Shown piece after piece: positions 8,572 through 58,310 of a DNA stretch of 58,403 nucleotides. Positions within the stretch are counted from its first letter, which is position 1. Each line of letters starts with the position of its first letter. This DNA comes from a bacterium (GTDB lineage: Bacteria > Zhuqueibacterota > QNDG01 > DTFT01), in assembly GCA_016933415.1 (NCBI GenBank), contig JAFGAX010000140.1:1-58403 (forward strand), given 5' to 3'. The notes beneath the pieces are model-generated. The model saw only the letters and a program-made list of their open reading frames with translations, was not told where the DNA came from and did not search any database. A program made the translations under genes and the position numbers.

Positions 8572-10269
8572 ATGAGACGAAACCTGCTGTTTGCCTGGAC
8601 TTTCGCGTTCTGTTCCATCGGACATGCCGAGCAGTACCTTCTCAACGGCGGTCAGTCCTCCGAGATCCGCTATGTCATGACCCAGAATTTCATGCCGGGA
8701 GACGGCGTTTCACGGCTCGTGATGAGTTATGTGACGCCGAAAAGTTTCACTTCCCCCGGCTACACCCAGGTCATCCGGAATTTTGACATCCGCTTCTCGA
8801 TTCCGCCGTCTTCGCGGAAAAGCCGGATCGATTCAAGGGGCAATGAGATCCTCGAGGTGGAATGGATGAATCCGCGCAACACGGTCCGCGCGACCCTGAC
8901 CTGCACGGCTGTCAACCGGACGGAACTGAAGCCCCTGAAGGCGTCCGCGCCATTTCCGCTGACCGGCCTCGCGCCGGACGTCCGTCCATACCTTCAGCCG
9001 ACAAAGATGATCCCCAGCGCCCACCCGGAAATTCTGAAGCAGGCGCGCCGCCTGACCGCATCGAGCCGGACCGAATTCGACGCGGTCCAGCGCATTCTCT
9101 CCTGGCTCGTGGACCGAGTGAATTACGTCCAGAATCCGGAGCGTTACGACGCCGTCTGGTCGCTGAAAACCGGGAAAGGCAACTGCCAGAACTACAGCCA
9201 TCTGGCCGCGACCATGATGCGCGCCGTCGGCATTCCCGTGCGGATCGTGAACGGCGTGACGCTGAAACAGCCGTATGAGATGAAAATGCCCGGCGGGACA
9301 TTCGCCATGCGCATGGCCCAGGGCCGGCATTCCTGGATCGAGGTGTACTTTCCGGACCTCGGGTGGGTGCCTTTTGATCCCCAGCAGAGCGAGCTGTTCG
9401 TGAGCAACCGTTTCATCCGGGTGGAAACCGGACTGGACAACGAAGAGACCGTCAATGACGGTTCCATCCGATGGAAACGCGCTCCCCGGAGCCTTCAGAT
9501 GCCGTTGTTCCAGGAAATCGTGGATGCCGAGTTCGTTCAGGACCGGGTGGAACTCTCCGCCGCGCGGCAGTCTTACGGTCCGAAAAAACTGCTCTTTTCA
9601 CCGGTCGTTGAATCCGCGTTCGAGAACGTCGCATTCGTTCCCGAGCAGGAAGCCGCGCCGGTCGCGGAACCGGTTTCCACACGCAGGCTCGATTTCAGCA
9701 TGCCGGACACAACGGGCAATCTGGAATATCCCAGGGGCGAGGATTTCTCCGGATTCCGGCAGGCCCGGGGTTCCGGCTCGGACGACGAGTTCACCATGAA
9801 CCGGAGCTTCATGGTGGAAACCGCGGAATACGTCACCGGCCGCGGCGAGCGGTACGCACAGACTTTCATTCTGGACCGGCCCATGCGGATCGAACAAATC
9901 GGACTCGCCCTGCACCCGTTCGGGGGATCGGGCAGTCTCTGGCTGGAAGTGCTCCGGGACGACGGAAACGGAAAACCCGGCGGCCTCATCGAAACAAGCG
10001 ACCTGATCCCCGTCGGAACCGCTAAACCGGCCGCCGGCTATGACTGGATGGATTTCGCTTTCACCGCACGCGCCATGGAACTGGCGGCCGGACGGTACTG
10101 GATGGTGTTGTGCTACTCCGGAAGCCCGGTGGTCAACTGGTTCTTCACGTACGGCAAGCCCGTGGGCCCCAATGACGGGACGCGCTACAACACGCTGTTC
10201 GATGAAAACTGGAGCCGAAGTCTCTCGTACGAATTCAATTTCCGGGTGATCGGGAAAACGGCGCGGTGA
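8572..10269 (+). CDS. Secreted transglutaminase-like cysteine enzyme with C-terminal beta-sandwich domain
   Basis: Signal peptide MRRNLLFAWTFAFCSIGHA; triad motifs GNCQNYSH, GRHSWIEVY, WVPFDP; start at 8572 follows a GGGAG RBS. Confidence 0.8.
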   Translation: MRRNLLFAWTFAFCSIGHAEQYLLNGGQSSEIRYVMTQNFMPGDGVSRLVMSYVTPKSFTSPGYTQVIRNFDIRFSIPPSSRKSRIDSRGNEILEVEWMNPRNTVRATLTCTAVNRTELKPLKASAPFPLTGLAPDVRPYLQPTKMIPSAHPEILKQARRLTASSRTEFDAVQRILSWLVDRVNYVQNPERYDAVWSLKTGKGNCQNYSHLAATMMRAVGIPVRIVNGVTLKQPYEMKMPGGTFAMRMAQGRHSWIEVYFPDLGWVPFDPQQSELFVSNRFIRVETGLDNEETVNDGSIRWKRAPRSLQMPLFQEIVDAEFVQDRVELSAARQSYGPKKLLFSPVVESAFENVAFVPEQEAAPVAEPVSTRRLDFSMPDTTGNLEYPRGEDFSGFRQARGSGSDDEFTMNRSFMVETAEYVTGRGERYAQTFILDRPMRIEQIGLALHPFGGSGSLWLEVLRDDGNGKPGGLIETSDLIPVGTAKPAAGYDWMDFAFTARAMELAAGRYWMVLCYSGSPVVNWFFTYGKPVGPNDGTRYNTLFDENWSRSLSYEFNFRVIGKTAR

Positions 10270-16882: not shown

Positions 16883-16886
<4 letters not shown>

Positions 16887-18295
16887 GTCCACTCCGTATG
16901 GAAGAATCGCCCGCGCGGCCGGTCCGTGCGCTCATAGGTGTGCGCGCCGAAGAAATCCCGCTGGGCCTGGAGCAGGTTCGCGGGCAGTACCGCGGACCGG
17001 TATCCGTCATAATAGGCGAGCGCGCTCGAGAAGGTCGGAACGGGGATGCCGGTCATCGCGGCTTCGCTGACCACAGCGCGCCAGGAATCCTGGCAACCGG
17101 CCAGTACGGACCGGAAATACGGCGCCAGCAGCAGATTCTTCAGACCGGGCTCCGCGTCGAACGCCTCCTTGATTTTGTCGAGGAACTGGGCCCGGATGAT
17201 GCATCCCGCGCGCCAGAGCAGTGCGATGGCGCCGAAATTCAGACGCCATTTGTACTCCTCGTCCGCGGACCGGAGCAGTTGGAAGCCCTGCGCGTAGGAA
17301 CAGATTTTGGAGGCATACAGGGCTTCCCGAACGGCTCCGACGAAAGCCGCACGGTCGCCGGAGAACGGGCGGGAAGGACCGGCGAGTATTCCGGACGCCG
17401 CGACTCTTTCCTCCTTCAGCGCCGACAGGCACCGCGCGAAAACAGCCTCCGCAATGGTCTGGGCCGGAGCGCCCAGATCCAGCGCGGTCTGGCTGGTCCA
17501 TTTTCCCGTCCCCTTCTGGCCGGCCGCGTCGAGTATGACATGCACCATGGGCTTTCCGGTTTCCGTGTCCTTCTTCTTGAGAATCCGGCCCGTGATCTCG
17601 ATGAGATAACTGTTCAGGTCGCCGCGGTTCCATTCATCGAAAACGGACGCCATCTCCTCCGTCGTCATGCCGAGCAGCGTCTCGAGGAGAGCGAAGGATT
17701 CTCCGATCATCTGCATATCGCCGTACTCGATGCCGTTGTGCACCATCTTCACGAAATGACCCGCGCCTCCGGACCCGATCCATTCACAGCATGGCGTGCC
17801 GTCCGGCGTTTTCGCGGCAATGGCCTGAAAAAGGGGCTTGACGACAGGCCAGGCGTCCGGATTGCCCCCCGGCATGATGGAGGGCCCCTTGAGCGCGCCT
17901 TCCTCCCCGCCGCTGACCCCGGTGCCGATATAGAGGATCCCCGTGCCCTCCAGGGAGCGGATCCGCCGCTCCGTATCCAGGAACAGGGAATTGCCGCCGT
18001 CGATCAGAACGTCGCCCGGTTTCAGGAGGGGTTTCAACTGGTCGATCAGCTGGTCCACGGCCTTTCCGGCCGGAACCATCATCAGAATTTTCTTCGGCGC
18101 GGACAGGTCGCCGCAGAAGGACGCGAGGTCCGGATGCACCGCCGCGTTCTTCCCGGAAGTGCGCTCCGCGAACCGGTTCCGCTTGCCCGCGTCCAGGTCC
18201 GTGCCGGCCACCGAATAGCCGTGGTTCGAGAAATTGAGGGCCAGGTTCTCACCCATCACGCCGAGGCCGACGATGCCGATGTCTTTCTTGCTCAT
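16883..18295 (-). CDS. gnd: 6-phosphogluconate dehydrogenase, NADP-dependent, decarboxylating
   Basis: 470 aa; [73 protein letters not shown]. Confidence 0.97.
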
Positions 18296-18344: not shown

Positions 18345-18440
18345 AGTTCAAAGTTCAAAGTTCAAGGTTCAAAGTTAAAATAAATGGTTTGACTTCGATT
18401 CCGCCGTTCTCTTTGAACTTTGAACCTTGAACTTTGAACT
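18345..18440. repeat. Inverted heptamer-array element A
   Basis: (AAAGTTC)n left arm and (GAACTTT)n right arm; 18352-18376 and 18416-18440 are a perfect 25-bp inverted repeat around a 39-nt loop. Confidence 0.9.
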
Positions 18441-18444
18441 GATT

Positions 18445-19221
18445 TTAGATCGTCATCGCCGAAAATCCGCCGTCCACCCGGATCAGCGCGCCCGTGACGA
18501 AGGAAGAAGCCTTCTCCGAGGCGAGCCAGACCACGGCGCCCGTCAGTTCCTCCGCGTTTCCAAAGCGCCCCATCGGCGTGTGGTTGAGAATCGAAGCCGT
18601 GCGTTCGGGCGTGAGCAGTTTGCGGTTCTGCTCCGCGGGGAAAAAACCCGGCAGCAGCGCGTTCACGCGCACGCCCTGCCGGGCCCATTCCCGGGCCAGA
18701 AACTGGGTGAGGCTGTTGACGCCGGCCTTGGAGATGCCATAGGTGAACACCTTGGACAGGGGCGGTCCGGACGATGCCGATGAGATATTGATGATGCTGC
18801 CTCCCTTTTTCCGGTCGATCATGCGGCGGCCGAATATCTGGCACGCGAGCATCATGGACTTCAGGTTCACGTTCAGAATGCGGTCCCATTCGGATTCCGC
18901 GATGTCGAAGAAAGGCGTGGCGGAGTTCACGCCCGGCGCGTTGATCAGAATATCCGCGCCGCCGAAAGCGTCCGCCACCTCGGAATCCGCCCGCTCCAGT
19001 TCGGCCTTGGACGAGGCGTCCGCAGCCACCGCCAGACCCCGGACGCCGGACTTCTCGACGCGGCCGGCCGCCGCCTCGGCCTTCCCTTTGTCCAGATCCA
19101 CAATCGCCACATCGGCTCCCGCATCGGCGAGACCCTCGGCCATGGTGCTCCCGAGAACGCCGCCCCCGCCGATGACCACCGCGGTTTTCCCCTTCAATCC
19201 GAACCACTCCTGCACATTCAT
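18445..19221 (-). CDS. SDR oxidoreductase, UxuB-like (D-mannonate oxidoreductase / fructuronate reductase type)
   Basis: GGGGVLGSTMA, NAPGVN, NISS, YGISKAG (YxxxK), NALLPGFFPAEQN, HTPMGRFG, VDGGFSA resemble the SDR-type UxuB of Bacillus; substrate is inferred. Confidence 0.8.
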   Translation of the reverse strand: MNVQEWFGLKGKTAVVIGGGGVLGSTMAEGLADAGADVAIVDLDKGKAEAAAGRVEKSGVRGLAVAADASSKAELERADSEVADAFGGADILINAPGVNSATPFFDIAESEWDRILNVNLKSMMLACQIFGRRMIDRKKGGSIINISSASSGPPLSKVFTYGISKAGVNSLTQFLAREWARQGVRVNALLPGFFPAEQNRKLLTPERTASILNHTPMGRFGNAEELTGAVVWLASEKASSFVTGALIRVDGGFSAMTI

Positions 19222-20333
19222 GCCATGCCTCCTGCCGTTCGGAGTCCGTCCGGACTCGCGTGCTTTTTCTTCGGGATTCCGCCCGCCGGCCGGCCGTCCG
19301 CCCTCGCGCAGGACGCCCGGGGAACCAGAGTCGCCTCCAACTCCACCGTCTTGCGGATCACGGAATCGGTTTTGCCGATCTGCTGCATCAGCAGGTCCGC
19401 GGCCGCCTTCCCCATTTCATAGGCGGGTACCCGGATCGAGGACAGCGGAACGCGGACGGATCCGCAGAATTCGATGTCATCGAAACCGATGACCGAAACG
19501 TCCTCCGGGATGTGGACGCCCAGTTCCATCAGCGCATTCATGACCCCGATGGCCACCAGATCGTTGAAGCAGAAAACAGCCGTGGGCCGCTCGCCCGATC
19601 CGGAAAACTGCGCCTTCGCCGCGGCGTACCCGTCAGCGAGATAGACCCCCGCCTGCCGGACGCCGGACGCGGAAAACGGAAGACCGTGTTCCATCATGGC
19701 CCTCCGGTAGCCGGTCAGACGCTCCCGGTTGTGCATGGAATAGTCCGGACCGGAGTAATAGGCGATCTTGCGGTGTCCGAGACCGATCAGATAGGAAACC
19801 GCCTCGCAGGCCGCACCCTCGTTCCTGATATCGACGACATTTGCCGCGACGTTGGCCACTTTCTCGAGCAGGACGAGCGGCACCTGGTTCTGAGAGATCA
19901 GTGACAGATGGGACATATCCGCGTCCGACCCCTGGAGCGGAGACAGAATCAGGCCGTCGACGCGCTGGCGGAGAAGGGCTTCAATGCTGCTCTTTTCACG
20001 GTCCGGTTGAAGTTCCGAACTGCCGAGAAGAACCGTGTATCCGCAACCGGAGAAATACTCGAATACGCCGCGCATGATCTTGGTGAAATACGGATTATCG
20101 ATCTGTTTCACCACCAGCCCGATGCTCCGCGTCTGTCGGGAAGAAAGTGAACGGGCGATCTGATTCGGTTGATAATTCAGTTTCCGGATGACATCCCGCA
20201 CACGGTCCCGCGTCGCTGCGGAAATGCTCGGGCGATTGTTCAGGACAAAAGAAACCGTTGATTTCGACACTCCGGCCAGGCGGGCGACGTCATCGATGGT
20301 TACTTTTTCTTTAAAACGGTTTTGATTATTCAT
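19218..20333 (-). CDS. LacI-family transcriptional regulator
   Basis: VTIDDVARLAGVSKSTVSFVLN HTH, YQPNQIARSL hinge, AVFCFNDLVAIG, VSVIGFDD. Confidence 0.95.
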   Translation of the reverse strand: MNNQNRFKEKVTIDDVARLAGVSKSTVSFVLNNRPSISAATRDRVRDVIRKLNYQPNQIARSLSSRQTRSIGLVVKQIDNPYFTKIMRGVFEYFSGCGYTVLLGSSELQPDREKSSIEALLRQRVDGLILSPLQGSDADMSHLSLISQNQVPLVLLEKVANVAANVVDIRNEGAACEAVSYLIGLGHRKIAYYSGPDYSMHNRERLTGYRRAMMEHGLPFSASGVRQAGVYLADGYAAAKAQFSGSGERPTAVFCFNDLVAIGVMNALMELGVHIPEDVSVIGFDDIEFCGSVRVPLSSIRVPAYEMGKAAADLLMQQIGKTDSVIRKTVELEATLVPRASCARADGRPAGGIPKKKHASPDGLRTAGGMA

Positions 20334-20394
20334 ATTCTATTTAAAATCAATTGGTTATTATTCGGTGTTTTATTATTTGTTAAACCGATATAGT

Positions 20395-20423
20395 AAGATA
20401 TGGATAATTATCCTCGAAATCAA
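20395..20423 (-). promoter_or_regulatory. Putative promoter of the lacI-SDR-gnd-larA operon with an internal palindrome
   Basis: TTGATT-17 nt-TATCTT; perfect palindrome GGATAATTATCC (20402-20413) in the spacer. Confidence 0.55.
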
Positions 20424-20479
20424 GTGATAAATTGAAAAATGCGAGCGCAGGTATTTCTGCCAAAATTGCATTTTTCAAC

Positions 20480-20508
20480 TTGCATATTTCCGCCAAAATT
20501 GTTATAAT
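20480..20508 (+). promoter_or_regulatory. Consensus sigma70 promoter (extended -10) for the FAH-family gene
   Basis: TTGCAT-17 nt-TATAAT preceded by TG. Confidence 0.75.
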
Positions 20509-20540
20509 ATTGAAATTATATAAGTTATCATGAGGAAACC

Positions 20541-21449
20541 GTGCGACTCTTTTCTTTCCAATTACCGGATGGTTCATTCGGTATCGGTGTTGAAACACCG
20601 GAAGGACCGGTCAATCTCACAGCCGCTTTTGAGATTTACCAGCAGGCCAAGCGGGTGCGACAGCCGGTCACTTTTGCCTTTATTCAGGTCATGGTGGAAA
20701 TGGGTTACGGTTCCGCCTCCGCCATACGCAGAATCGTGGAAGATCCGTGGGTCCGCTCCAAATCCGCTGGTCTACGCCTGCCGCAGGATTTCGAATTCGG
20801 TCTTCCCATCCTGCGTCCCTCGAAAATTGTGGCCATCGGCCGCAACTATCTGGCCCATGTCCGCGAACTTCAGCACGAAATCCCGACGGAACCCGTTTTC
20901 TTCTGCAAGGCGCCGTCCTCGCTCGTGCCCCACGGATCGAACATCGTCATTCCCGCCTGGCTCGATTCCCGCGTGGATCACGAGGCGGAACTGGCGCTGG
21001 TCATCGGGAAACCCTGCCGGAACGTTCCGGAAGCGGAGGCGCTTGAATACATCGCCGGGTACAGCATCGTCAACGACGTCACCGCCCGGGCCATGCAGAA
21101 AGAGGACATCGCGGCAGGCAATCCGTGGTTCCGGTCGAAGAGCATCGACACGTTCTGCCCCATGGGACCCTATTTCGTGCCGTCCGATGACGTGCCCGAT
21201 CCCAACCGCCTGAACATCCGGCTCACGGTGAATGGAGAGACGAAACAGCAGGCCGGCACTGCATCCATGATTTTTCCGGTGGAACGCCTGGTTTCCGCTG
21301 TTTCACGGTACATGACGCTTCAACCCGGCGACGTGATCGCCACGGGCACCCCCGAGGGCGTCTCCCCCATCGGTCCGGGCGACGTGATCGAAATCGAAAT
21401 TGACGGGCTGGGGACGCTCAAAAATCAGGTCGTCAAGGAAGGAGTTTAA
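20541..21449 (+). CDS. Fumarylacetoacetate hydrolase family protein
   Basis: KIVAIGRNYLAHVRE, PVFFCKAPSS, DHEAELALVIGK, GYSIVNDVTAR, RSKSIDTFCPMGP, GDVIATGTPEGV; GTG start. Confidence 0.92.
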   Translation: MRLFSFQLPDGSFGIGVETPEGPVNLTAAFEIYQQAKRVRQPVTFAFIQVMVEMGYGSASAIRRIVEDPWVRSKSAGLRLPQDFEFGLPILRPSKIVAIGRNYLAHVRELQHEIPTEPVFFCKAPSSLVPHGSNIVIPAWLDSRVDHEAELALVIGKPCRNVPEAEALEYIAGYSIVNDVTARAMQKEDIAAGNPWFRSKSIDTFCPMGPYFVPSDDVPDPNRLNIRLTVNGETKQQAGTASMIFPVERLVSAVSRYMTLQPGDVIATGTPEGVSPIGPGDVIEIEIDGLGTLKNQVVKEGV

Positions 21450-21460
21450 GGTATATTGCT

Positions 21461-21604
21461 AAAGTTTAAAGTTCTAAGTTCAAAGTTCAAAGAAAGACGC
21501 TATCAGCATGCTTTTTCTCTGAACACTGATTATTGCGCTCCAGGAAAATAACTATTTTCATAAGACTTTTTTTTACTTTGAACTTTAAACCTTGAACTTT
21601 GAAC
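21461..21604. repeat. Inverted heptamer-array element B
   Basis: AAAGTTT AAAGTTC TAAGTTC AAAGTTC AAAG ... CTTTGAA CTTTAAA CCTTGAA CTTTGAAC around an AT-rich ~83-nt core. Confidence 0.85.
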
Positions 21605-21627
21605 CGAAGAAAAATCAGGAGGCAACG

Positions 21628-22545
21628 TTGAAACTTTTAGTGACCGGCGGCGCCGGATTCATCGGATCGCACATCGCGGACGGCCTGATCGAAAAGGGAC
21701 ACGACGTCACCGTCATCGACAACCTGCTCATGGGCCGAATGGAAAACGTGCCGAAAGCCGCGCGCTTCCACCTCATGGACATCCGGGCGCCTGAGATCGA
21801 GAAGGTTTTTGATCTCGGCCGGTTTGACGCGGTTTTCCACCTGGCGGCGCAGATGGACGTCCGCAGGTCCGTGGAGGATCCCATTTTCGACGCCGGCGTG
21901 AACGTCCTCGGCACCCTGAACCTGATCCGGAACGCGGTCCGCACGGGCGTGAAAAAAGTGGTCTTCGCCTCGACCGGCGGCGCTGTGTACGGCGAGCAGG
22001 AAGTCTTTCCGTGCGACGAGACCCATCCGACCCGGCCCGTATCTCCCTACGGCATCACCAAGCTGTGCGTGGAAAAGTACCTTTTCTATTATGCCCTGGA
22101 ATTCGGCCTGAAATACGCCGTGCTCCGGTTCGCGAATGTCTACGGCCCGCGCCAGAATCCGCACGGTGAGGCCGGCGTGGTCGCCATATTCGCCAGCCGC
22201 CTGCTGTCCGGGGAACAGCCCGTCATCAACGGTGACGGCAAACAGACGCGGGACTACGTTTATGTGGGCGATGTGGTGCAGGCCAATCTCAAGGCGCTCG
22301 AGCACCCGGAAAATGACGCGTTCAACGTGGGCACGGGCGTCGAAACGGATGTCAACCGGATATTCGACCTTCTGAACCGTCACACCGGAGGTAAGGCCTC
22401 CGAACAGCACGGCCCCGCCAAGCCCGGGGAACAGAAACGCAGTGTCATCAGCTTTCGGAAAATCAAGGACGTCCTGGGCTGGGAACCCCGTGTCGGGCTG
22501 GAGGAAGGCCTGAAACGCACGGTCGACTATTTCAGGAACCGTTAG
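21628..22545 (+). CDS. NAD-dependent epimerase/dehydratase (UDP-glucose 4-epimerase-like extended SDR)
   Basis: LVTGGAGFIGSH, HLAAQMDV, ASTGGAVYG, YGITK, LRFANVYGPRQ, RDYVYVGD; TTG start 21628 after AGGAGG. Confidence 0.9.
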   Translation: MKLLVTGGAGFIGSHIADGLIEKGHDVTVIDNLLMGRMENVPKAARFHLMDIRAPEIEKVFDLGRFDAVFHLAAQMDVRRSVEDPIFDAGVNVLGTLNLIRNAVRTGVKKVVFASTGGAVYGEQEVFPCDETHPTRPVSPYGITKLCVEKYLFYYALEFGLKYAVLRFANVYGPRQNPHGEAGVVAIFASRLLSGEQPVINGDGKQTRDYVYVGDVVQANLKALEHPENDAFNVGTGVETDVNRIFDLLNRHTGGKASEQHGPAKPGEQKRSVISFRKIKDVLGWEPRVGLEEGLKRTVDYFRNR

Positions 22546-22560
22546 GACGGACGCCGGGTC

Positions 22561-23703
22561 ATGAGCCAGATCGAGCCGCGACCGCCTGAAACCCGTCCGG
22601 AAGACCACGGTCTGGTCGGCCGTTCCGAGGCTTTTCTGCAGGCATGGGAACTCGTCAAGCAGGTCGCTCCGACCCAGATCACCGTTCTCATCACGGGAGA
22701 GAGCGGAACCGGCAAGGACATGATCGCCCGGGCCCTTCACGCGATGAGCCCGCGCCGCGAGAAACCGCTCCTGAACGTCAACTGCGGCGCGATTCCCGAG
22801 GGCCTGCTGGAAAGCGAGTTGTTCGGGCATGAAAAAGGCTCCTTCACGGGCGCCACGGATTCCAGGCGTGGTTATTTCGAAATGGCGGACGGCGGCACCC
22901 TCTTTCTCGACGAAATCGGGGAATTGCCGCTCGCCACGCAGGTCAAGCTTCTCCGCGTGCTTGAGACCATGGAATTCATGCGCGTGGGCGGAAGCCGCCT
23001 CCAGCGGGTGGACGTCCGTGTGATCGCGGCCACGAACAAGGATCTGGATTCCGCCGTGTCCCGCGGCGAATTCCGGCGTGATCTGTTCTACCGCCTCAAT
23101 GCGGTCAAAATCCGGGTGCCTTCCCTCCGGGAGCGCCGGACGGACATCCGCGACCTGGCGCTCCGGTTCACGGACGCGGTATGCCGGACCAACCGCATTC
23201 CCTTCGAGGGATTCACCGAAGACGCTTTTGAACTGCTCGAAAGCTATTCCTGGCCCGGGAACGTCCGGGAGATGCGCAACGTGATCGAGCGCGTGATCGT
23301 CCTGGAAAAGGGTCAGCGGATCGACCGCGCCCGGCTCGAAAGCCATCTCGGCGAAGGGCTGGATTTCGAACGCAACCTTCCGGTCATCACGCACAAGAGC
23401 TCCGAACAGGCGGAACGGGAGCTCCTGGTCCGTGCGCTGCTGGACATCCGTATGGCCATCGAGGAGATCCGTCGTCTGCTGGTCCGCGGATCCGGCCCCA
23501 GGGCTCCGCTCACGCCCGTGCCGCCGGAACAGGCGCCTGTCGTGGAAACCCTTTCGAGGGATTTCAATCTCGAGGAGCTGGAAAAACAGCAGATCGAACG
23601 CGCGATCGACCGGTTCGCCGGAAACCGGAGAAAGGCGGCGAAAGCGCTGGGCATCGGCGAACGCACCCTCTACAGGAAACTGAAGGAGTACGGAATTGAA
23701 TGA
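22561..23703 (+). CDS. Sigma-54-interacting AAA+ regulator with Fis-type HTH and no sensory domain
   Basis: GESGTGKD, ESELFGHEKGSFTGA, LFLDEIGE, FRRDLFYRL, WPGNVREM, AAKALGIGERTLYRKL. Confidence 0.92.
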   Translation: MSQIEPRPPETRPEDHGLVGRSEAFLQAWELVKQVAPTQITVLITGESGTGKDMIARALHAMSPRREKPLLNVNCGAIPEGLLESELFGHEKGSFTGATDSRRGYFEMADGGTLFLDEIGELPLATQVKLLRVLETMEFMRVGGSRLQRVDVRVIAATNKDLDSAVSRGEFRRDLFYRLNAVKIRVPSLRERRTDIRDLALRFTDAVCRTNRIPFEGFTEDAFELLESYSWPGNVREMRNVIERVIVLEKGQRIDRARLESHLGEGLDFERNLPVITHKSSEQAERELLVRALLDIRMAIEEIRRLLVRGSGPRAPLTPVPPEQAPVVETLSRDFNLEELEKQQIERAIDRFAGNRRKAAKALGIGERTLYRKLKEYGIE

Positions 23704-24238
23704 CCCGGACGCGACACCGGATCGGAGAGCCCGATGCCGCCGCGCTTTCCCGCCGGCCCGGACGGTCGGGGCCGCGGCGGTTCTCGCGTTGACGGCCCTG
23801 CTCATCCGTTGCGGGGCCTACAGTTTCTCCGGAGCCTCCCTCCCGCCGCACCTGAAAACGGTCGCCATCCCTCTTTTCGAAAACCGGACTCCTGAATTCG
23901 GCATCGATCAGACGCTGACGGACGCCGTGATCGAAGCCGTGACACGGGACAACACGCTGAAGATCGCGGAGCCCGCATCCGCCGACTGCATCCTTCGGTG
24001 CACGCTGAACCGTGTCGAGGACAGGGCCGGCCAGTACAACCAGAATGAGGAGGCGTCCACGTTCCGGGTCACGCTGTCCGTCCAGGCGGTCTTCGAGGAC
24101 ATGCGGAAGCGCGTCGTGATCTGGCAGGGCCCGTTCACCGCTTTCGGCAACTATTCTGAGGACCGCGACGCGGGAATCGACGAAGCCGTGGACAAGCTGA
24201 AAACCGAAATCGTCAACCGGATGGTTTCGAACTGGTAG
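23696..24238 (+). CDS. lptE: LPS-assembly lipoprotein LptE family
   Basis: CGAYSFSGASLPPHLKTVAIPLFENRT...TLTDAVIE...KTEIVNRMVSNW, FCB-type LptE pattern; start codon uncertain (TTG 23696). Confidence 0.75.
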   Translation: MNDPDATPDRRARCRRAFPPARTVGAAAVLALTALLIRCGAYSFSGASLPPHLKTVAIPLFENRTPEFGIDQTLTDAVIEAVTRDNTLKIAEPASADCILRCTLNRVEDRAGQYNQNEEASTFRVTLSVQAVFEDMRKRVVIWQGPFTAFGNYSEDRDAGIDEAVDKLKTEIVNRMVSNW

Positions 24239-24245
24239 AAACAGG

Positions 24246-24274
24246 TTGAATTAAAATCCGTTTTTTGTTATATT
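24246..24274 (+). promoter_or_regulatory. Consensus sigma70 promoter (extended -10)
   Basis: TTGAAT-17 nt-TATATT preceded by TG, upstream of the TPR gene. Confidence 0.7.
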
Positions 24275-24361
24275 TAATTGCGACCGCGGTGCGCCTCCGC
24301 TGAGACGGCAGGCGGACAGGCGCCGGAAAGAACCGTCACCGTAACCGGCCGGAGCCCCAAC

Positions 24362-25813
24362 GTGGAAAAAGACGAATTGCTCGACTATCTGGAGTCCCGC
24401 CTGCGGGACAATCCGAAATCGCTTCTGTTCGCGCGGCTGGCCGATGAGTATCTGAAGCGCGGCAATTCAGACGATGCGCTGGTTCTCTGCACCGAGGGCG
24501 TGAAGCATCACCCCTATTACACCACCGGATACTTTGTCCTGGCCAGAGCCCATGTCCTCCGCAAGGAATATGACAAGGCCGAAGCGGCCCTGAAAAAAGT
24601 GCTGTCCCACGACCAGCAATATCTGTCCGCACAGAAACTGCTCGGCGACATACTGGTCAAAACCGGCTGGGAAGCGGCCGCTTCCGAGCATTACGCCAGC
24701 GTGATTGACTCCGATCCCATGGAGGACAGAGTCCGTGATCTGATGAAACGGTACTCTGTACCCGCAGACGGTCCGAAACCCCGGAGCGCCGCCCTCCCGG
24801 AAACGCCTGCGTCCGCTGAACCGGAGTCGCCGTTACAGCCGGAGCCGGACTCCGAACCCGTCGCGACGCCGGTCATGCCGGCCCCGGAAATGAAAACGAC
24901 TGTTCCGATCCCCCCCGATGATACGGATTCGGACTGGACCGAACAAATACGCGAATTCAGTCCGGAGGACATCGATCTGCCGGTTCCGTTGACAGCCGGA
25001 CTGCCGGATGGGACGCCCCCCCCGGCGGATTTCATGACGGATCCCGGGACCGCGGAAACGACGCTGCCTGCGGCCCCGGATGAACCGGATTCCGGCGACG
25101 AACTCGAATCCCTTATTACCGACCTTGAGGAAACTCCGGCGCCGGCCGATGCGCCGTCTTCAGCGAAACCCGAACCGGTTCAAAACCCCGAAGAAATGGT
25201 GGATTTCACCCAGAACTGGTTTGATCTGTCCTCGTTCGACAACCCGGAGGAGGAAAAGACGGAGGAAACCCCGGCCGGGGACAAAGCCCAGGACCTCGAA
25301 CTTGACATCCAGGAGGTTGAAACACCGGCCTCCGGGGCCGATGCTCCACCCCGGACGGATGAGCCGCAGGCGTCTGACTTGTTCGAGAAAAAGGAGCCGG
25401 AGGGATTCCTCAACCCGTCTGAACTGGAACCGGCCGTGAACCCGCCTGCGCCGGAGCCCCCGCCGGAACCACCGGCGCGGGAGTCCGTCAAACCCGTTCC
25501 CTGGTTCAAGGCCGAGAAACATTCCGGCACGGCCGAAAAATCCCCGGCCCCGCAGACATCGCCTGTTGCGTCTCGATCGGGAGAAACGGCCGCCGCACGG
25601 CCGGCCGATCCGGTACAGCCTTCGAGAGCGGATGACCGTTCCGACCTGAAAATCGTGACTTCCACGCTCGGCGAAATCTATGCCGCACAGGGTCAGTTCG
25701 AAAAGGCGATCGAAGTTTACGAGGCCCTCCTCGAAAAATCGCCCAATGAATCGCGGTACAAGGACAAGATCGCGGACCTGCAAAAGAGACTGAAGGAATC
25801 ATCCGGAAAATAA
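24362..25813 (+). CDS. Tetratricopeptide-repeat protein with a long acidic/proline-rich linker and a C-terminal TPR
   Basis: GTG start after GGAG; N-terminal TPRs (LFARLADEYL, GYFVLARAH, AQKLLGDIL); about 300 aa P/E/D/A-rich; C-terminal TSTLGEIYAAQGQFEKAIEVYEALL. Confidence 0.8.
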   Translation: MEKDELLDYLESRLRDNPKSLLFARLADEYLKRGNSDDALVLCTEGVKHHPYYTTGYFVLARAHVLRKEYDKAEAALKKVLSHDQQYLSAQKLLGDILVKTGWEAAASEHYASVIDSDPMEDRVRDLMKRYSVPADGPKPRSAALPETPASAEPESPLQPEPDSEPVATPVMPAPEMKTTVPIPPDDTDSDWTEQIREFSPEDIDLPVPLTAGLPDGTPPPADFMTDPGTAETTLPAAPDEPDSGDELESLITDLEETPAPADAPSSAKPEPVQNPEEMVDFTQNWFDLSSFDNPEEEKTEETPAGDKAQDLELDIQEVETPASGADAPPRTDEPQASDLFEKKEPEGFLNPSELEPAVNPPAPEPPPEPPARESVKPVPWFKAEKHSGTAEKSPAPQTSPVASRSGETAAARPADPVQPSRADDRSDLKIVTSTLGEIYAAQGQFEKAIEVYEALLEKSPNESRYKDKIADLQKRLKESSGK

Positions 25814-25885
25814 CAAGCCTGTTGGCCGGTGTTGGCCATCTGCCGGCCCGATCCCATTCCCCCGCGACCCGGACAACCGGCGGCC

Positions 25886-26767
25886 ATGATATCCGTCCTG
25901 ATCGTCACCTATCGCAGTGAACGTTATATCCTCCCCTGCCTGTCCTCCCTGCCCGGGACGGTGGACGGGGGGGTCGAAGTCTGCGTGGTGGACAACAGTC
26001 TGTCCGATGAAACGCGGGCCCTCATCGGGACCTTCATGCGCGGTCCGGAAGGACGGCGCATCCGCGTGATTCCGGGCCGCGAACCGAGAAGTTACGCCGC
26101 GGCCGTCAATCTCGGCCTCCGCGCCTGCCGGGGCGACTGGATCTGCCTGCTCGGCCCGGACACCCGGATGGGCCGCGGTTGCCTGGAATATATGATCCGT
26201 TATCTGAGACGCCACCCCGAAGCCGGCGCCGCGGCCCCCCGGCTCACGGACGACGCAGGCCGGCCCCTTCCGTCGTGCCGGCGTTTCCCCGGGGTACGGG
26301 ATGCCCTTCTGGAAATGAGCGGACTGCCGCGGCTGTGGCCGTCCCGATTCACGCCCCGGTGGAAGATGCCGGACTTCCGGCTTGACCGGATCGCCGATGT
26401 GGATCAGCCGGAAGCGACCTGCCTCCTCCTCCGGCGCCGTGTGGTCGATGCCGTCGGGCCGATGGATGAACGTTTTCCGCTGTTCTTCAATGATGTGGAC
26501 TGGTGCCGCCGCATCCGGACGGCCGGATGGCGCATCGTCTTTCTGCCGGAAGCATCCGTGGAGCATGTCCGCGGCGCCAGCGTGAACCGGGAACCGTTCA
26601 TCAAAATCTGGCGAAGCCACCAGGGTTTCTACCGTTATCTCTCGAAACACATCGGGTCCGGCCGGCGACGGCCGCTGCTCCCGGTGCTCGGATGGCTTTT
26701 CATCGTGACGGCCGTCCTTCGCGCCGGATGGACCCTTATGCAACTCAATCCGGGGAAGAACGAATGA
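25886..26767 (+). CDS. Glycosyltransferase family 2 (WbbL-like)
   Basis: ISVLIVTY, VVDNSLSD, YAAAVNLG, CLLGPDT, CLLLRR, MDERFPLFFNDVDWC, HVRGAS. Confidence 0.88.
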   Translation: MISVLIVTYRSERYILPCLSSLPGTVDGGVEVCVVDNSLSDETRALIGTFMRGPEGRRIRVIPGREPRSYAAAVNLGLRACRGDWICLLGPDTRMGRGCLEYMIRYLRRHPEAGAAAPRLTDDAGRPLPSCRRFPGVRDALLEMSGLPRLWPSRFTPRWKMPDFRLDRIADVDQPEATCLLLRRRVVDAVGPMDERFPLFFNDVDWCRRIRTAGWRIVFLPEASVEHVRGASVNREPFIKIWRSHQGFYRYLSKHIGSGRRRPLLPVLGWLFIVTAVLRAGWTLMQLNPGKNE

Positions 26768-27276
26768 ACAAACGTTTTGAAGGCCGGGTCTGGAAACTCG
26801 GGGACCAGGTGGATACGGATGTCATCTATCCGGGCCGATACCTTCCGATTCTCGATCCGGCTGAAATGGCCCGTCACGCCCTCGAAGGCGTGGATCCGGA
26901 GTTTCCGGAAAAACTGCGGCCGGGAGACATTCTGGTGGCGGGTTCCAATTTCGGATGCGGGTCATCCCGGGAACAGGCGGCGACCTGCCTCAAGGAGGCG
27001 GGCGTGGCCTGTGTCATCGCGAAATCCTTCGCGAGAATTTTTTTCCGGAACGCCATCAACCTGGGGCTTCCGCTTGTCGAGAGCGCGGACGCCCCGGACC
27101 GGATTCAATCCGGGGACCGTCTGGTCGTTGATTTTGACACCGGCTTGCTCCGGACGGGCGGGGTCCAATTCCGCTTTTCGTCCCTTCCGCCCATGGTCAT
27201 GGAGATTCTCGACGCCGGCGGTCTGATCGCCCAGGTCCGCGCCAAACTCGGACGCAACGGCCCGCCCGCAGGATAA
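26764..27276 (+). CDS. leuD: 3-isopropylmalate dehydratase / aconitase-family small subunit (short, archaeal-type)
   Basis: 170 aa; GRVWKLGDQVDTDVIYPGRYL, VAGSNFGCGSSREQA, SFARIFFRNAINLGLP, ILDAGGL; ATGA overlap with the GT2 stop; could be a HacB/DmdB-type paralog. Confidence 0.8.
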   Translation: MNKRFEGRVWKLGDQVDTDVIYPGRYLPILDPAEMARHALEGVDPEFPEKLRPGDILVAGSNFGCGSSREQAATCLKEAGVACVIAKSFARIFFRNAINLGLPLVESADAPDRIQSGDRLVVDFDTGLLRTGGVQFRFSSLPPMVMEILDAGGLIAQVRAKLGRNGPPAG

Positions 27277-27361
27277 CGCGCATCACCGCCGCTGACGGGC
27301 CCGCAAGCGGCCGCACCGGTTCATCCCGATTCCGTTCAACGCCGAAGGAGCCAATTCAGAC

Positions 27362-29047
27362 ATGCCCGCCCCCCAGCCCGACAAAATCATCTACACCATG
27401 ATGCGCGTCAGCAAATTCTACGGCCAGAAACAGGTACTGAAGGACATTTCCATTTCCTACTTCTACGGCGCCAAGATCGGCGTCATCGGCCTGAACGGAT
27501 CCGGAAAATCCTCCCTGCTCCGCATTTTCGCCGGCCGGGACGTCGAATACAACGGAAAAACGATCCTGTCTCCCGGGTATTCGGCCGGCCTGCTGGAACA
27601 GGAACCCCTGCTCGACTCCGGGAAAACCGTGCGCGAGGTCGTCGAAGAGGGCGTCCAGGATGTGGTGAACCTGCTCGCCGAGTACAACCGCATCAATGAA
27701 AAATTCGCCGAACCCATGTCCGACGACGAGATGAACAAGCTGATCGAGCGGCAGGGAAAGGTGCAGGAACAGCTGGACGCCTCGAACGCCTGGGATCTCG
27801 ACTCGCGTCTTGAAATGGCCATGGACGCGCTCCGCTGTCCCCCGCCGGACACGCCCGTGAACGTGATCTCCGGCGGAGAACGCCGTCGCGTGGCCCTCTG
27901 CCGGCTCCTGCTTCAGAAACCCGACATTCTCCTGCTCGACGAGCCGACCAACCATCTGGACGCGGAATCCGTCGCCTGGCTGGAGCATCACCTCCAGCGG
28001 TACGAAGGCACGGTCATCGCCGTCACCCATGACCGGTACTTCCTCGACAACGTGGCCGGATGGATTCTCGAGCTGGACCGGGGCGAAGGCATCCCCTGGA
28101 AGGGGAATTATTCCTCATGGCTCGAGCAGAAGCAGAAGCGGCTCAGTCAGGAGGAGAAAGCCGAAACCGAGCGGCAGAAAACCCTTCAGCGGGAGCTGGA
28201 CTGGATTCACATGGCGCCGAAAGCGCGGCACGCCAAGGGCAAGGCGCGCGTGAATGCCTATGAAAACATGCTGGCCGAGGCAAACCGGGAGCGCGTGGGC
28301 GAACTGGAGATATTCATTCCGCCGGGTCCCAGGCTCGGGAACATCGTCATCCAGGCGGAGAACGTATCCAAAGCCTACGAAGAGAACATCCTGGTTGAGG
28401 GCATGACCTTCTCCCTGCCGCCCGGCGGAATCGTGGGCGTCATCGGTCCCAACGGCGCGGGCAAGACGACCCTGTTCCGCATGATCACCGGATCGGAAAA
28501 GCCTGATTCCGGAACGATTCGGGTCGGCGAAACCGTGACGCTCGCCTATGCCGACCAGGACCGGAACCTGAATCCGAACCAGACGGTATGGGAGGCGATT
28601 TCCGAGGGAAAGGACATACTCCCGCTCGGCGAACGCGAGATGAATTCCAGGGCCTACGTCTCCCGGTTCAATTTCTCCGGCACGGACCAGCAGAAAAAAC
28701 TGTCCATGCTGTCCGGAGGAGAACGGAACCGCGTGCACCTCGCGCGCATCCTGAAACGCGGCGCAAACGTCATCCTTCTGGACGAGCCCACCAATGACCT
28801 GGACGTGAACACGATGCGGGCCCTCGAGGACGGTCTGGAGAACTTCGCCGGATGCGCGGTGGTGATCAGCCATGATCGCTGGTTCCTGGACCGCATCGCC
28901 ACGCACATTCTCGCGTTCGAGGGGGACTCGAAGGTTTTCTGGTTCGAGGGGAATTATTCGGAGTATGAAGAAGACAGGATCCGCCGCCTGGGCGCAGAAG
29001 CCGAACAGCCGCACCGGATCAAGTACAGGCATCTGACGAGGACTTAA
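27362..29047 (+). CDS. ettA: Energy-dependent translational throttle ABC-F protein
   Basis: 561 aa, two ABC cassettes; YFYGAKIGVIGLNGSGKSS, SGGERRRVALCRLLLQKPD, EGNYSEYEED, HRIKYRHL. Confidence 0.95.
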   Translation: MPAPQPDKIIYTMMRVSKFYGQKQVLKDISISYFYGAKIGVIGLNGSGKSSLLRIFAGRDVEYNGKTILSPGYSAGLLEQEPLLDSGKTVREVVEEGVQDVVNLLAEYNRINEKFAEPMSDDEMNKLIERQGKVQEQLDASNAWDLDSRLEMAMDALRCPPPDTPVNVISGGERRRVALCRLLLQKPDILLLDEPTNHLDAESVAWLEHHLQRYEGTVIAVTHDRYFLDNVAGWILELDRGEGIPWKGNYSSWLEQKQKRLSQEEKAETERQKTLQRELDWIHMAPKARHAKGKARVNAYENMLAEANRERVGELEIFIPPGPRLGNIVIQAENVSKAYEENILVEGMTFSLPPGGIVGVIGPNGAGKTTLFRMITGSEKPDSGTIRVGETVTLAYADQDRNLNPNQTVWEAISEGKDILPLGEREMNSRAYVSRFNFSGTDQQKKLSMLSGGERNRVHLARILKRGANVILLDEPTNDLDVNTMRALEDGLENFAGCAVVISHDRWFLDRIATHILAFEGDSKVFWFEGNYSEYEEDRIRRLGAEAEQPHRIKYRHLTRT

Positions 29048-29048
29048 A

Positions 29049-29224
29049 AAGTTCATAGTTCATAGTTCATTGTTCATGGTTAACAGAAGATACTCTTTTT
29101 GCAATGAACTCTTATGGATAAAGAAAAGGAGCAGGAATCATTAACGAGCAATTATTTTCTCTGAACAATGAACTGTAAATCATGAACTTGTTTTGCTATG
29201 AACAATGAACCATCAACTATGAAC
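29049..29224. repeat. Inverted heptamer-array element C
   Basis: AAGTTCA TAGTTCA TAGTTCA TTGTTCA TGGTTAA ... TGAACAA TGAACCA TCAACTA TGAAC, starting 2 nt after the ettA stop. Confidence 0.85.
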
Positions 29225-29249
29225 AGATTTTCCATGCCCCATCCTCGCC

Positions 29250-29305: not shown

Positions 29306-29971
29306 ATGCGCCGTGAACGAATCATCCCCTATCGAGGTAAAAACATCATCGTCCGGTTCACCATCGACCGTTGCACCCACGTGGCGGAATGCCTCATGGG
29401 GCTTCCGGACGTGTTCGACACGCGGCGCCAGCCCTGGGTGTCACCGGACGCCGCGTCGCCGGACGAAGTCGCTGAGGTGATCGAACGGTGTCCCACTGGA
29501 GCGCTCCACTACAAGAGGCTGGACGGGGGACCCGAAGAATCCATCCCGGATCAAAACACGCTGACGCTTGTTCAGAACGGCCCCCTGTACGCCCGGGGCG
29601 ATCTGCTGATCGAATCCGCGGACGGAACGCCTCTGTTCCGCGACACGCGCGTCGGCTTCTGCAGGTGCGGCGCATCGAAGCATAATCCCTTCTGCGACAA
29701 CCGGCATGACCTCGTGGATTTCGAGGAGCGCGGCCGCTTTCAGCATACCGCGCCCGTGACCGGCGTACCGGGACCGGTCAGGAAAGGCGTTCTCCGCATC
29801 CGGCTGTCCGCGGACGGACCCCTGATCCTCTCCGGGCCCATGGAGATAATCGATTCGGACGGCCGATCCGGTTTCCGCGGCAACCGCGCCGCCCTCTGCC
29901 GCTGCGGCGCTTCGAAGAACCATCCGTTCTGTGACGGCTCGCACAAAGCCGCGGGATTCCGTTCGGAATGA
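29306..29971 (+). CDS. CDGSH iron-sulfur protein with N-terminal divergent 4Fe-4S (Fer4_19-like) domain and two CDGSH motifs
   Basis: RCTHVAEC...RCPTGAL; FCRCGASKHNPFCDNRH and LCRCGASKNHPFCDGSH. Confidence 0.88.
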   Translation: MRRERIIPYRGKNIIVRFTIDRCTHVAECLMGLPDVFDTRRQPWVSPDAASPDEVAEVIERCPTGALHYKRLDGGPEESIPDQNTLTLVQNGPLYARGDLLIESADGTPLFRDTRVGFCRCGASKHNPFCDNRHDLVDFEERGRFQHTAPVTGVPGPVRKGVLRIRLSADGPLILSGPMEIIDSDGRSGFRGNRAALCRCGASKNHPFCDGSHKAAGFRSE

Positions 29972-58275: not shown

Positions 58276-58310
58276 CCCGTCCCGTCCTGTCCCGTCCCGT
58301 CCCGTCCCGC
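58276..58310. repeat. Pentanucleotide microsatellite (CCCGT)x7, imperfect
   Basis: CCCGT CCCGT CCTGT CCCGT CCCGT CCCGT CCCGC, flanked by the inverted repeat ATCCCGCG (58266) / CGCGGGAT (58313). Confidence 0.9.

Follow-up and report, generated by a model that had tools for sequence, protein, structure and literature searches.

Three inverted heptamer arrays and their gene context

The window, which is the whole 58,403-nt stretch of DNA analysed, belongs to a KSB1-type MAG of 2.7 Mb and 76% completeness (designated as G000). It contains three elements, A, B and C, in each of which paired arrays of period 7 were found by Tandem Repeats Finder, and the two arrays are mutually reverse-complementary. 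The elements are listed below with the neighboring genes, which were assigned by Pfam; the units of the gnd-side arm of A and of the left arm of B were also read from the sequence.

16883-18295, minus strand: gnd, 6-phosphogluconate dehydrogenase (6PGD, 438 bits), downstream of A in the same operon
18345-18380: element A, arm beside gnd, about five AGTTCAA units of AAA/AAG flavour
18381-18410: element A, loop, AT-rich, no ORF, no kinship with the loops of other copies
18411-18440: element A, arm beside the SDR stop codon
18445-19221, minus strand: SDR gene (adh_short_C2, 173 bits), stop codon adjoining A
20541-21449, plus strand: FAA-hydrolase-family gene, stop codon ahead of B
21461-21492: element B, left arm, 4.6 units, the outer ones degenerate
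21493-21574: element B, loop
21575-21604: element B, right arm, ending 11 nt ahead of the epimerase gene's ribosome-binding site, AGGAGG
21628-22545, plus strand: NAD-dependent epimerase gene, downstream of B
27362-29047, plus strand: ABC-F ATPase gene, stop codon adjoining C
29050-29081: element C, left arm of ATA/ATG flavour (GTTCATA, GTTCATA, GTTCATT, GTTCATG)
29082-29161: element C, loop
29162-29187: element C, inner right-arm copy, the arm region being duplicated in tandem over 37 nt (period-37 row of Tandem Repeats Finder)
29198-29225: element C, outer right arm, partner of the left arm in the minimum-free-energy fold
29306-29971, plus strand: CDGSH iron-sulfur protein gene, downstream of C

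Element A is located 4-5 nt past the SDR stop codon, between the SDR gene and gnd. Element B starts 11-12 nt past the FAA-hydrolase stop codon (21447-21449) and element C 1-3 nt past that of the ABC-F gene (29045-29047). The preliminary description had the elements beginning 2-12 nt past stop codons and A lying inside an operon, and the gene context is in agreement with both statements. The epimerase gene likely starts at TTG 21628 and not at 21592, judging from its ribosome-binding site.

The predicted fold of element A is a stem of 25 base pairs with no interruption (-39.1 kcal/mol, z = -6.8), as expected from the perfect stem of that length noticed earlier. The folding energies of B and C are -35.2 kcal/mol (z = -3.5) and -47.3 kcal/mol (z = -4.35), respectively, and for each of the three elements 0 of 200 shuffles reached the native value. 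The inverted heptamer arrays reported previously are therefore real by repeat detection and reverse complementarity. Their layout as paired arms also holds, except that C has a third array (the inner right arm) and the outer left units of B are degenerate. The 13-mer TTTTCTCTGAACA, said to be common to B and C, is present in both. We read it as the usual inner junction of the family, in which a T-run precedes the first inner right-arm unit, and the copy inside the loop of B is probably a leftover inner right-arm unit. The family 26-mer GTTCAAAGTTCAAGGTTCAAAGTTCA has an exact copy in the SDR-side arm of A (18414-18439, minus strand). Inspection of the sequence revealed no ORF in the loops of A, B and C. 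The stems are A/T-rich, and the T-runs sit at the loop-facing edge of the right arm. With no U-tract after them, the stems would make poor intrinsic terminators, and this role was rejected.

Family members in the genome and its relatives

The genome was scanned for inverted period-7 arrays and any genes enclosed by them, as the preliminary description had proposed. About 230 GTTCNNR arrays were found in G000 and one with a reversed-motif control, and their abundance is far above chance. The scan yielded 67 inverted (convergent) pairs as compared with three divergent ones, but no GTTC-armed four-helix-bundle (PF05635) gene in the 76%-complete assembly, from which the gpsA-asnS region described below is missing. 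A typical arm has about 4 units (28 bp; range 3-10), and both arms are of one flavour in 64 of the 67 pairs. The flavours among the 230 arrays are AA (134), CG (71) and AT (22). Among the 53 GTTCA-type pairs, the loops cannot be aligned with each other except for other repeat families nested inside. The elements are scattered among housekeeping genes, and a contig end is found 150 nt or less away from 24 of the arrays (5.8 expected).

Placement is strongly patterned. Intergenic arrays account for 180 of the 230; the median distance to the adjoining stop codon is 7 nt, and it is 9 nt or less in 38 of 65 cases. Modules typically begin 0-9 nt past a stop codon and often finish just ahead of the next ribosome-binding site, with arm ends often 5-15 nt away from it. 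Where the flanking genes converge (12 elements), an arm always lies 8 nt or less from a stop codon. Such stop-codon-to-ribosome-binding-site placement, which includes operon interiors (A, SDR/gnd), fits purely RNA-level devices under per-transcript selection and with no DNA-level copying, namely intercistronic RNase III sites, 3'-end stabilisers or translation coupling and attenuation. The very stable stems of A-C fit them as well, and 28-bp IVS stems are RNase III substrates. Nevertheless, we consider this explanation unlikely. No sense-strand bias was detected in G-U pairs (58 vs 56) or folding energy (p = 0.12) and no compensatory covariation between partner arms, so that nothing in these comparisons points to a signal specific to selection on RNA structure. 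In addition, six elements lie between divergent genes, and structure-only selection would not predict a species-wide change of flavour.

For comparison we used three sister species (G001, G002 and G003) and a member of the sister genus (G004). Generic GTTCNNN x4 counts are 146 in G000, 244 in G001, 132 in G002, 184 in G003 and 24 in G004, while the other 162 genomes of the phylum mostly give zero and a few reach about 20. The family is confined to the genus of G000 and, with fewer copies, the sister genus. In 43 of 50 cases, the orthologous spacers are also occupied in the three sister species, and the spacers compared showed neither a clean empty site nor a target duplication. The earlier suggestion of mobile elements or insertion scars thus lacks support in its simple sense: across sister species the slots are mostly fixed, which is largely the first outcome that the preliminary description had named as refuting it, and it is their content that changes. 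A simple MITE was likewise rejected, given the unrelated loops, the lack of a target-site duplication or clean empty site, and the occupation of most slots in all species.

The prevalent flavours are AAA/AAG in G000 and G002, ATA/ATG in G003 and CGG/CGA in G001. Sites of AAA flavour in G000 are ATA in G003 (12/12), CGG in G001 (8/10) and AAA in G002 (6/8), and flank nucleotide identity is 87-89% among the four species, which are roughly equidistant. G004 also has a CGG-type element past the SDR stop codon.

Replication slippage and template switching could in principle create and change such arrays in situ, with neither inter-locus copying nor dedicated machinery. The variable unit number, the positions fixed across species and the mixed or intermediate units (e.g. 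GTTCAGG and GTTCTGA) are all consistent with this. Moreover, heptamers are over-represented among long simple-sequence repeats in many bacteria, which a passage in PMC4679880 puts down to polymerase slippage. We nonetheless regard in-place origin as improbable. One 26-mer has 36 exact copies with an identical A-G-A-A unit order at different loci. Partner arms are not closer to each other (87.4%) than arms of different loci (88.1%), whereas partners should resemble each other more if slippage acted locally or one arm corrected the other. Flavour is also species-wide and not locus-specific, as the 12 of 12 sites in G003 illustrate.

Homogenisation by a Y1 transposase (RAYT), as for REP/BIME-type elements (REPINs), was considered as well. 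Gilson reportedly observed in 1987 that the REP consensus is species-specific at positions shared by E. coli and Salmonella. The architecture here fits a BIME, in which a highly variable linker separates two conserved halves in inverted orientation (PMC3333891). The high copy number and the intergenic location near stop codons and gene 3' ends are shared too (PMC3333891, PMC3116915), and several Y1_Tnp proteins are encoded in the genomes. In G000, however, the classical REP flanking a Y1_Tnp gene differs from one gene to the next (GTAGGGTGGGCC..., CCCACGGCTTTAGCCGTGGG and TGTAGGTCCGAAATGCC...), so the resident RAYTs have REP families of their own. There were 21 Y1_Tnp matches across five genomes, and at the 10 loci whose flanks were inspected, none had a GTTC array within ~1.5 kb. 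Furthermore, the arms taken singly are tandem arrays instead of palindromes and have no 5' GTAG. Mobilisation by a RAYT is accordingly very unlikely in our view. As for an autonomous element, no GTTC pairs 0.4-6 kb apart were found in the incomplete MAG G000. In G003, also an incomplete MAG, the only wide GTTC pair among the matches listed (about a third) encloses a PF05635 gene and not a transposase.

A PF05635 cassette in the gpsA-asnS slot

In G001, G002, G003 and G004, the slot between gpsA and asnS contains a PF05635 (S23p/Avd-like) gene within GTTC-heptamer arms, and further metagenome-recovered relatives have an armed PF05635 gene at the same place. The cassette genes score 121 and 118 bits. 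Their arms are ATA in G003 and CGG in G001 and G002; the CGG cassette is the only one seen in G002, though AAA is the commonest flavour of that genome, a mismatch that counts against the interpretation given below. Between G003 and G002, nucleotide identity on either flank is 90-95% but drops to 50-60% inside the outer arm ends, while G001 and G002 are 85-98% identical across the whole gpsA-asnS stretch. The cassette protein is 56% identical across the block swap, and another species pair is ~97% identical over the same stretch. Arms and gene are exchanged as a single block with breakpoints at the outer arm ends. This sharp block, with its divergent protein, is a further point against in-place slippage.

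Close relatives of G003 have a gene-less or decayed version in the slot. The other alleles found there have GTTACGA arms with a third protein type, are decayed, or are gene-less, and the adjacent AsnRS is 88-96% identical across relatives with differing alleles. In the slot downstream of asnS, the flavour equals that of the cassette in 4 of 5 lineages. The preliminary description had mentioned similar arms around four-helix-bundle genes in other genomes. This statement is supported by these relatives and by a wider sample, in which inverted heptamer arms surround 33 of 68 PF05635 loci drawn from many phyla (controls, 0/68 in each of two windows).

It had also proposed that A-C are the empty form of such cassettes. 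On sequence grounds this is reasonable, because an armed PF05635 gene and gene-less or decayed alleles exist at gpsA-asnS in relatives and the identical arm type encloses the gene in sister species, although no armed gene was found in the 76%-complete assembly of G000 itself, from which the gpsA-asnS region is missing.

Interpretation and comparison with known repeats

Anatomy, copy number, placement, orthology and the turnover of flavour are established, as are the existence of the cassette and the exchange of whole blocks. On this basis we interpret A-C, with moderate confidence, as gene-less members of lineage-specific, rRNA-IVS-like foldback modules with block-swapped slot content. A module consists of two inverted arms of ~4 GTTCNNR units (about 28 bp) around an unconserved loop, in a slot extending from a few bases past a stop codon to the next ribosome-binding site or the next stop codon. 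The slots pass vertically, and their content (arms plus loop, or arms plus gene) is traded as one block with breaks at the outer arm ends. Since one flavour prevails throughout a species, an arm-recognising copy-and-replace process would have to keep rewriting the arms from a genome-wide template; the replacing machinery is postulated here. In the transcript, the 25-28-bp stem would be a duplex of the kind that RNase III cuts in rRNA IVSs, and by this analogy it may be processed. It would also stop 3' exonucleases in the manner of REP hairpins. By analogy, the transcript would likely be processed between cistrons or shielded at the upstream 3' end.

Drosophila foldback (FB) transposons also have long inverted arms of short tandem repeats, with a middle that is heterogeneous or absent and sometimes carries cargo. 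They are eukaryotic, much larger and of demonstrated transposition, whereas nothing here indicates insertion at new sites. Among bacterial systems, the Coxiella burnetii 23S IVS has terminal inverted repeats forming a ~28-bp stem, and its loop may hold an S23p four-helix-bundle ORF; it is seen as selfish or formerly mobile, and RNase III cleaves its stem (Warrier et al. 2016, PMC4990558). The modules described here have a similarly long inverted-repeat stem (25 bp and perfect in A; arms of ~4 x 7 nt). In contrast to the IVS, they lie between protein-coding genes and not in 23S helices, their arms are tandem heptamers, and a genome carries some 100 copies or more. An ORF is missing from most of them, A-C among these; the PF05635 ORF occurs only in relatives, in the gpsA-asnS slot.

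The GGGAATC heptamers of Xanthomonas form about 186 arrays per genome, with 70-75 convergent pairs as potential stem-loops; 89-93% are intergenic, and they are nearer the upstream ORF, at a mean of 28 nt (Rehm et al. 2015, PMC4692102). Both families are dispersed intergenic 7-nt tandem arrays (at least three units) with convergent pairs near the upstream ORF and positions kept in sister species. They differ in that the units here (GTTCAAA, GTTCATA, GTTCCGG) have no G-runs and cannot form a quadruplex, in that flavour differs among congeneric species at shared slots, and in the link to PF05635, none being reported for the Xanthomonas repeats. The cyanobacterial STRR/Nostoc heptamers, which include TTCAAAA/TTTTGAA arrays, and the TAACTGA repeats of Beggiatoaceae are dispersed, intergenic and of unknown function (PMC4679880; bioRxiv 10.1101/2022.06.06.494920). 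Most of these are direct arrays that stand singly near start codons, inverted pairs being few, and, unlike the present family, they are not reported as post-stop slot-filling hairpins.

The same set of ~100 or more intergenic slots, common to the species and filled with at least four interchangeable heptamer flavours, amounts to a natural experiment. Three ideas become testable: recognition of arms in trans, IVS-like punctuation of operons at the RNA level, and in-place rewriting of dispersed repeats rather than their movement. For metagenomics, the arrays break assemblies and mislead start-codon calling.

The family links the heptamer repeats of bacteria to the gene family of rRNA intervening sequences. 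To our knowledge, both tandem heptamer repeats (cyanobacterial STRR, Xanthomonas GGGAATC) and the S23p/23S-IVS family have gone unexplained for decades. As a speculative extension, and one that we would not expect to prove correct, the PF05635 protein of a 'master' cassette might recognise its own heptamer arms by their sequence, with roughly one subunit per 7-nt unit, and drive the copying of that array into every pre-existing slot with the help of a host nuclease, polymerase or reverse transcriptase. If so, a swap of the cassette allele would re-flavour hairpins genome-wide, S23p/IVS proteins would gain a function, bacterial heptamer repeats would be explained, and a new, protein-guided form of concerted evolution would come into view.

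Heptamer-armed hairpins in the window and across the genome

The preliminary description reported three hairpins (A, B and C), each made of inverted arrays of tandem heptamers behind a stop codon. They were confirmed as described, and Tandem Repeats Finder located their period-7 arrays.

Heptamer arms of elements A, B and C in the window.
18345-18380 and 18411-18440: arms of A, period 7
21461-21492 and 21575-21604: arms of B, period 7
29050-29081 and 29198-29225: arms of C, period 7
29162-29187: extra inner right arm of C, from a 37-nt duplication

Pfam assignments place A between the SDR gene and gnd of a minus-strand lacI-SDR-gnd-larA operon, B between an FAA-hydrolase gene and an NAD-epimerase gene, and C 3' of an ABC-F ATPase gene and 5' of a CDGSH protein gene. 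The distance from the upstream stop codon to the arm start is 1-12 nt. The predicted RNA folding energies are -39.1 kcal/mol for A (z -6.8, with 25 uninterrupted pairs), -35.2 kcal/mol for B (z -3.5) and -47.3 kcal/mol for C (z -4.35). Rfam yielded only sub-threshold matches of A to plant and animal miRNA precursors, regarded as chance matches to a long hairpin. Element B ends 11 nt 5' of an AGGAGG sequence that serves the TTG start codon at 21628. Taking the longest ORF would start the epimerase gene at TTG 21592, within the right arm of B (window 21592-21630), but TTG 21628, with AGGAGG 6 nt upstream, is likely the true start. Start codons were called too far upstream through heptamer arms in nine cases among the gene calls made here; such arms are expected to mislead start-codon calling often in this way.

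The source genome, designated G000, is a 2.7-Mb MAG of 227 contigs (76% complete), in which the window is contig C116. An assignment to KSB1 fits the names of AsnRS relatives. When GTTC motifs were chained at 7-nt spacing with at least three units, 230 arrays were found, compared with 1 for the reversed motif. According to the last three bases of the GTTCNNR unit, hereafter the flavour, 134 arrays are GTTCAAA/G, 71 are GTTCCGG/A and 22 are GTTCATA/G. A purpose-made codon-usage gene caller assigned 180 of the 230 to intergenic regions, and 91 of the 1099 spacers of at least 40 nt hold an array. Arrays are over-represented within 150 nt of contig ends (24 versus 5.8 expected), so their true number is higher.

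The arrays form 67 convergent and 3 divergent pairs, and both arms share one flavour in 64 of the 67 convergent pairs. The preliminary description had proposed a scan for such pairs and for genes enclosed by them; the pairs are abundant, while GTTC-armed PF05635 genes were found in the relatives and not in the G000 assembly. G000 has no arm pairs 0.4-6 kb apart, and no kilobase-scale cargo was found between its arms. In 53 GTTCA-type pairs, the loops are 24-227 nt long and mutually unalignable, except for other repeat families nested in some of them. The arms lie near a single consensus, AGTTCAAAGTTCAAGGTTCAAAGTTCAAAG; one 26-mer occurs in 36 exact copies, and the unit order A-G-A-A is preferred. 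Two arms are unusually long with 10 units (C214:13982-14060 and C117:6846-6919), and in that of C214 blocks of AAA units are followed by blocks of AAG units, which suggests local slippage superposed on a 4-unit template.

The outer arm edge lies at a median of 7 nt from the adjacent stop codon (no more than 9 nt in 38 of 65 distances), and each of the 12 elements that separate convergent genes has a stop codon no more than 8 nt from one arm. Towards the start codon, the arm often ends 5-15 nt ahead of the Shine-Dalgarno sequence. In compact co-directional spacers the module occupies the entire spacer, and no extra stop-codon bias was left there once ~25 nt had been set aside for ribosome binding. 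Six elements are flanked by divergent genes.

Other repeats are nested in the loops. The last stretch of the window (58276-58403, to the contig end) holds 2.5 copies of a 38-nt unit, CTTCGCGGGATCAATCAACAGATGCGGATTATTGAAGA, which are 100% identical and preceded by a (CCCGT)x6.8 run. This ~38-nt sequence also lies in heptamer-element loops at C44:31417-31604, C145:2000-2201 and C38:27479-27750, and thus represents a second repeat family nesting in those loops. A small palindromic repeat, GGAATTCAGGCTTCAGCCTTTCAT...ATGAAACCCTGAAGGGTGAATTCC, recurs in loops at C91:4341-4530, C179:155-334, C145:2000-2201 and C161:9505-9669, and replaces the heptamer element in some sister-species slots (site 1 in G002).

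Orthologous slots and their contents

The genome was compared with three sister species (G001, G002 and G003) and a sister genus (G004). The four species are about equidistant: their coding flanks are 87-89% identical in nucleotide sequence. Only this genus has the exact AAA-type arm (119 matches in G000, 98 in G002, 12 in G001 and 7 in G003). The looser pattern GTTCNNN x4 gave 146 matches in G000, 132 in G002, 184 in G003, 244 in G001 and 24 in G004; among the 162 other genomes of the phylum, most gave 0 and a few up to ~20.

The three window sites and 18 further sites provided 50 evaluable orthologous spacers, 43 of which contain a heptamer element with boundaries kept within a few bases. 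At sites that are AAA in G000, the flavour is ATA in 12 of 12 in G003, CGG in 8 of 10 in G001 (the other 2 ATA) and AAA in 6 of 8 in G002 (the other 2 CGG). Site C is ATA in G000, AAA in G002 and CGG in G001, and a CGG-type element follows the SDR stop codon in the sister genus too. Most loops cannot be aligned between species; at site 7, both loop ends are common to the AAA-flavoured copies of G000 and G002. This occupancy, combined with differing flavours and loops, indicates that the slots (intergenic spacers filled by the module) are old and stable and that their contents turn over.

Simple mobility, as suggested in the preliminary description, is largely contradicted by the 43 occupied spacers. 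The orthologous loci offered no clean empty site and no target duplication: two candidate empty sites in G003, sites 5 and 10, are rearranged or deletion remnants. An extra 3 kb at site C of G003, considered as cargo, consists of two ordinary ORFs (514 and 325 aa) that separate the ABC-F gene from the next gene downstream (L023, G003:C14:214600-218000) and have a small CGG-type element between them; it is an indel of ordinary genes beside a slot. At site 10, G000 (C35:4950-5040) retains only the last ~85 nt of a gene whose intact form is a 1.9-kb insert in G002 (L048, G002:C60). The remnant encodes ...LVRKMMLVK*, resembling a T9SS-type C-terminal tail, and has a heptamer element directly behind it.

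A four-helix-bundle gene within the same arms

It had been proposed that the elements could be the empty form of cassettes carrying a four-helix-bundle gene. In support of this idea, the same arms enclose a PF05635 (S23p/Avd-like) gene in G001-G003, G004 and further relatives. The G003 gene (121 bits) lies exactly within ATA-type arms (G003:C5 127815-128336), the sole wide ATA-type pair among the matches listed. In G002 (118 bits) and in G001, where a contig end truncates it, the gene lies within CGG-type arms. All three cassettes occupy one spacer, gpsA-asnS, where the sister genus has a truncated copy with GTTCTGA/GTTCCGG arms. Between G003 and G002, both flanks are 90-95% identical, and identity drops to 50-60% exactly from one outer arm end to the other before rising again; between G001 and G002, it is 85-98% across the whole stretch. 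The proteins of G003 and G002 are 56% identical, and those of G001 and G002 are nearly identical over the available part.

Further genus-level relatives, found via AsnRS, show other contents of the slot.

Further alleles at the gpsA-asnS slot.
L162: CGG-armed allele
L163 and L165: GTTACGA-armed alleles with a third protein type, one with an in-frame stop
L166: C-terminal remnant with the right arm only
L160 and L161, closest relatives of G003 (AsnRS 96%): spacer with no gene, holding remnant ATA units and a REP insertion

In the slot downstream of asnS, the flavour of the empty element equals that of the lineage's cassette in 4 of 5 lineages, which are not independent. Both gpsA and asnS are absent from the G000 assembly, so its own cassette cannot be seen; a metagenome scan for the slot flank gave 0 matches.

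The single PF05635 gene of G000 (C65:9230-9970) is without GTTC arms. Its N terminus is extended by 12-nt coding repeats rich in RNE/RND, and an octamer array, GAACGTTA x7 (about 9905-9965), lies behind the gene. GTTC arms are likewise missing from the orthologues in G001-G003 (L071, L073 and L074). A sister-genus PF05635 gene (L072, G004:C306, 1331-2025) has a period-8 hairpin of GATTGGAA / TTCCAATC type on each side, so the period-7 rule is not absolute.

More generally, inverted heptamer arms were found at 41 of 81 PF05635 loci, comprising 80 homologue loci from many phyla and the G002 cassette locus. At loci with full flanks the figure was 33 of 68; two shifted control windows each gave 0 of 68. 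The units include GTCCAAA, GTTTCTG and GTTTCAA, and five loci from other phyla have GTTCAAA/G arms. Protein distance and heptamer-unit distance are weakly correlated (Mantel r = 0.20, p = 0.0004), and co-inheritance of gene and arms alone could give this correlation. All 16 host genomes tested contain tens to hundreds of GTYYNNR arrays, with several flavours each in the two whose matches were listed.

Proposed mechanism and comparison with known systems

A link to REP-associated Y1 transposases (RAYTs) was rejected: the Y1_Tnp genes of G000 each have a classical REP family of their own on both sides, and GTTC arrays were near none of 10 Y1_Tnp loci with DNA fetched across five genomes. The three genes (C212:1-1000, C4:1560-2450 and C197:5400-6470), bracketed by the families CCCACGGCTTTAGCCGTGGG, TGTAGGTCCGAAATGCCGAG... 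and GTAGGGTGGGCCGCAGGCCCACC, resemble classical REPtrons. The second family (TGTAGGTCCGAAATGCCGAG...) has copies inserted in several heptamer-element loops and one in the decayed gpsA-asnS slot of L160/L161.

The elements are not classical terminators, since no T-run follows the right arm. As to a promoter role of the TTGAAC units, inspection by eye revealed no suitably spaced -10 element at B, and this reading was abandoned. G-U pairs showed no sense-strand bias (58 versus 56), and folding energy did not favour the sense strand (23 versus 18, p = 0.12). Partner arms showed no covariation in a permutation analysis, being 87.4% identical compared with 88.1% for arms of different loci. Each arm thus resembles an independent draw from a template common to the whole genome, and not one of two halves that co-evolve under local selection for an RNA stem. 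Once transcribed, the stems of 25-28 bp may be substrates of RNase III or barriers to exonucleases. RNase III cuts the middle of the 28-bp stem of the Coxiella rRNA intervening sequence (IVS), which has been studied experimentally (PMC4990558).

We interpret elements A-C as empty members of a heptamer-armed, IVS-like module family, for which anatomy, placement, slot conservation, species-wide flavour, block exchange at the arm ends and a four-helix-bundle version are established here. We propose that the slots are rewritten from a template by an activity that acts in trans and recognises the arms, which would explain the uniform arms, the absent partner covariation and the species-wide flavour. 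The four-helix-bundle protein may be this factor. G003, G001 and the GTTACGA lineage fit such a role, whereas G002, with a CGG cassette and an AAA majority, does not, unless its assembly (84% complete) lacks a second cassette.

The architecture matches that of the convergent GGGAATC heptamer pairs of Xanthomonas, which number 70-75 per genome, lie near the upstream ORF and are 83% positionally conserved (PMC4692102). The elements also resemble BIMEs, with their conserved halves and variable linkers (PMC3333891). The exact arm sequence had no relevant match in the literature. The novelty lies in the lineage, in flavours specific to each species at slots that the species share, and in showing directly that a swappable PF05635 cassette is enclosed by the same arms.
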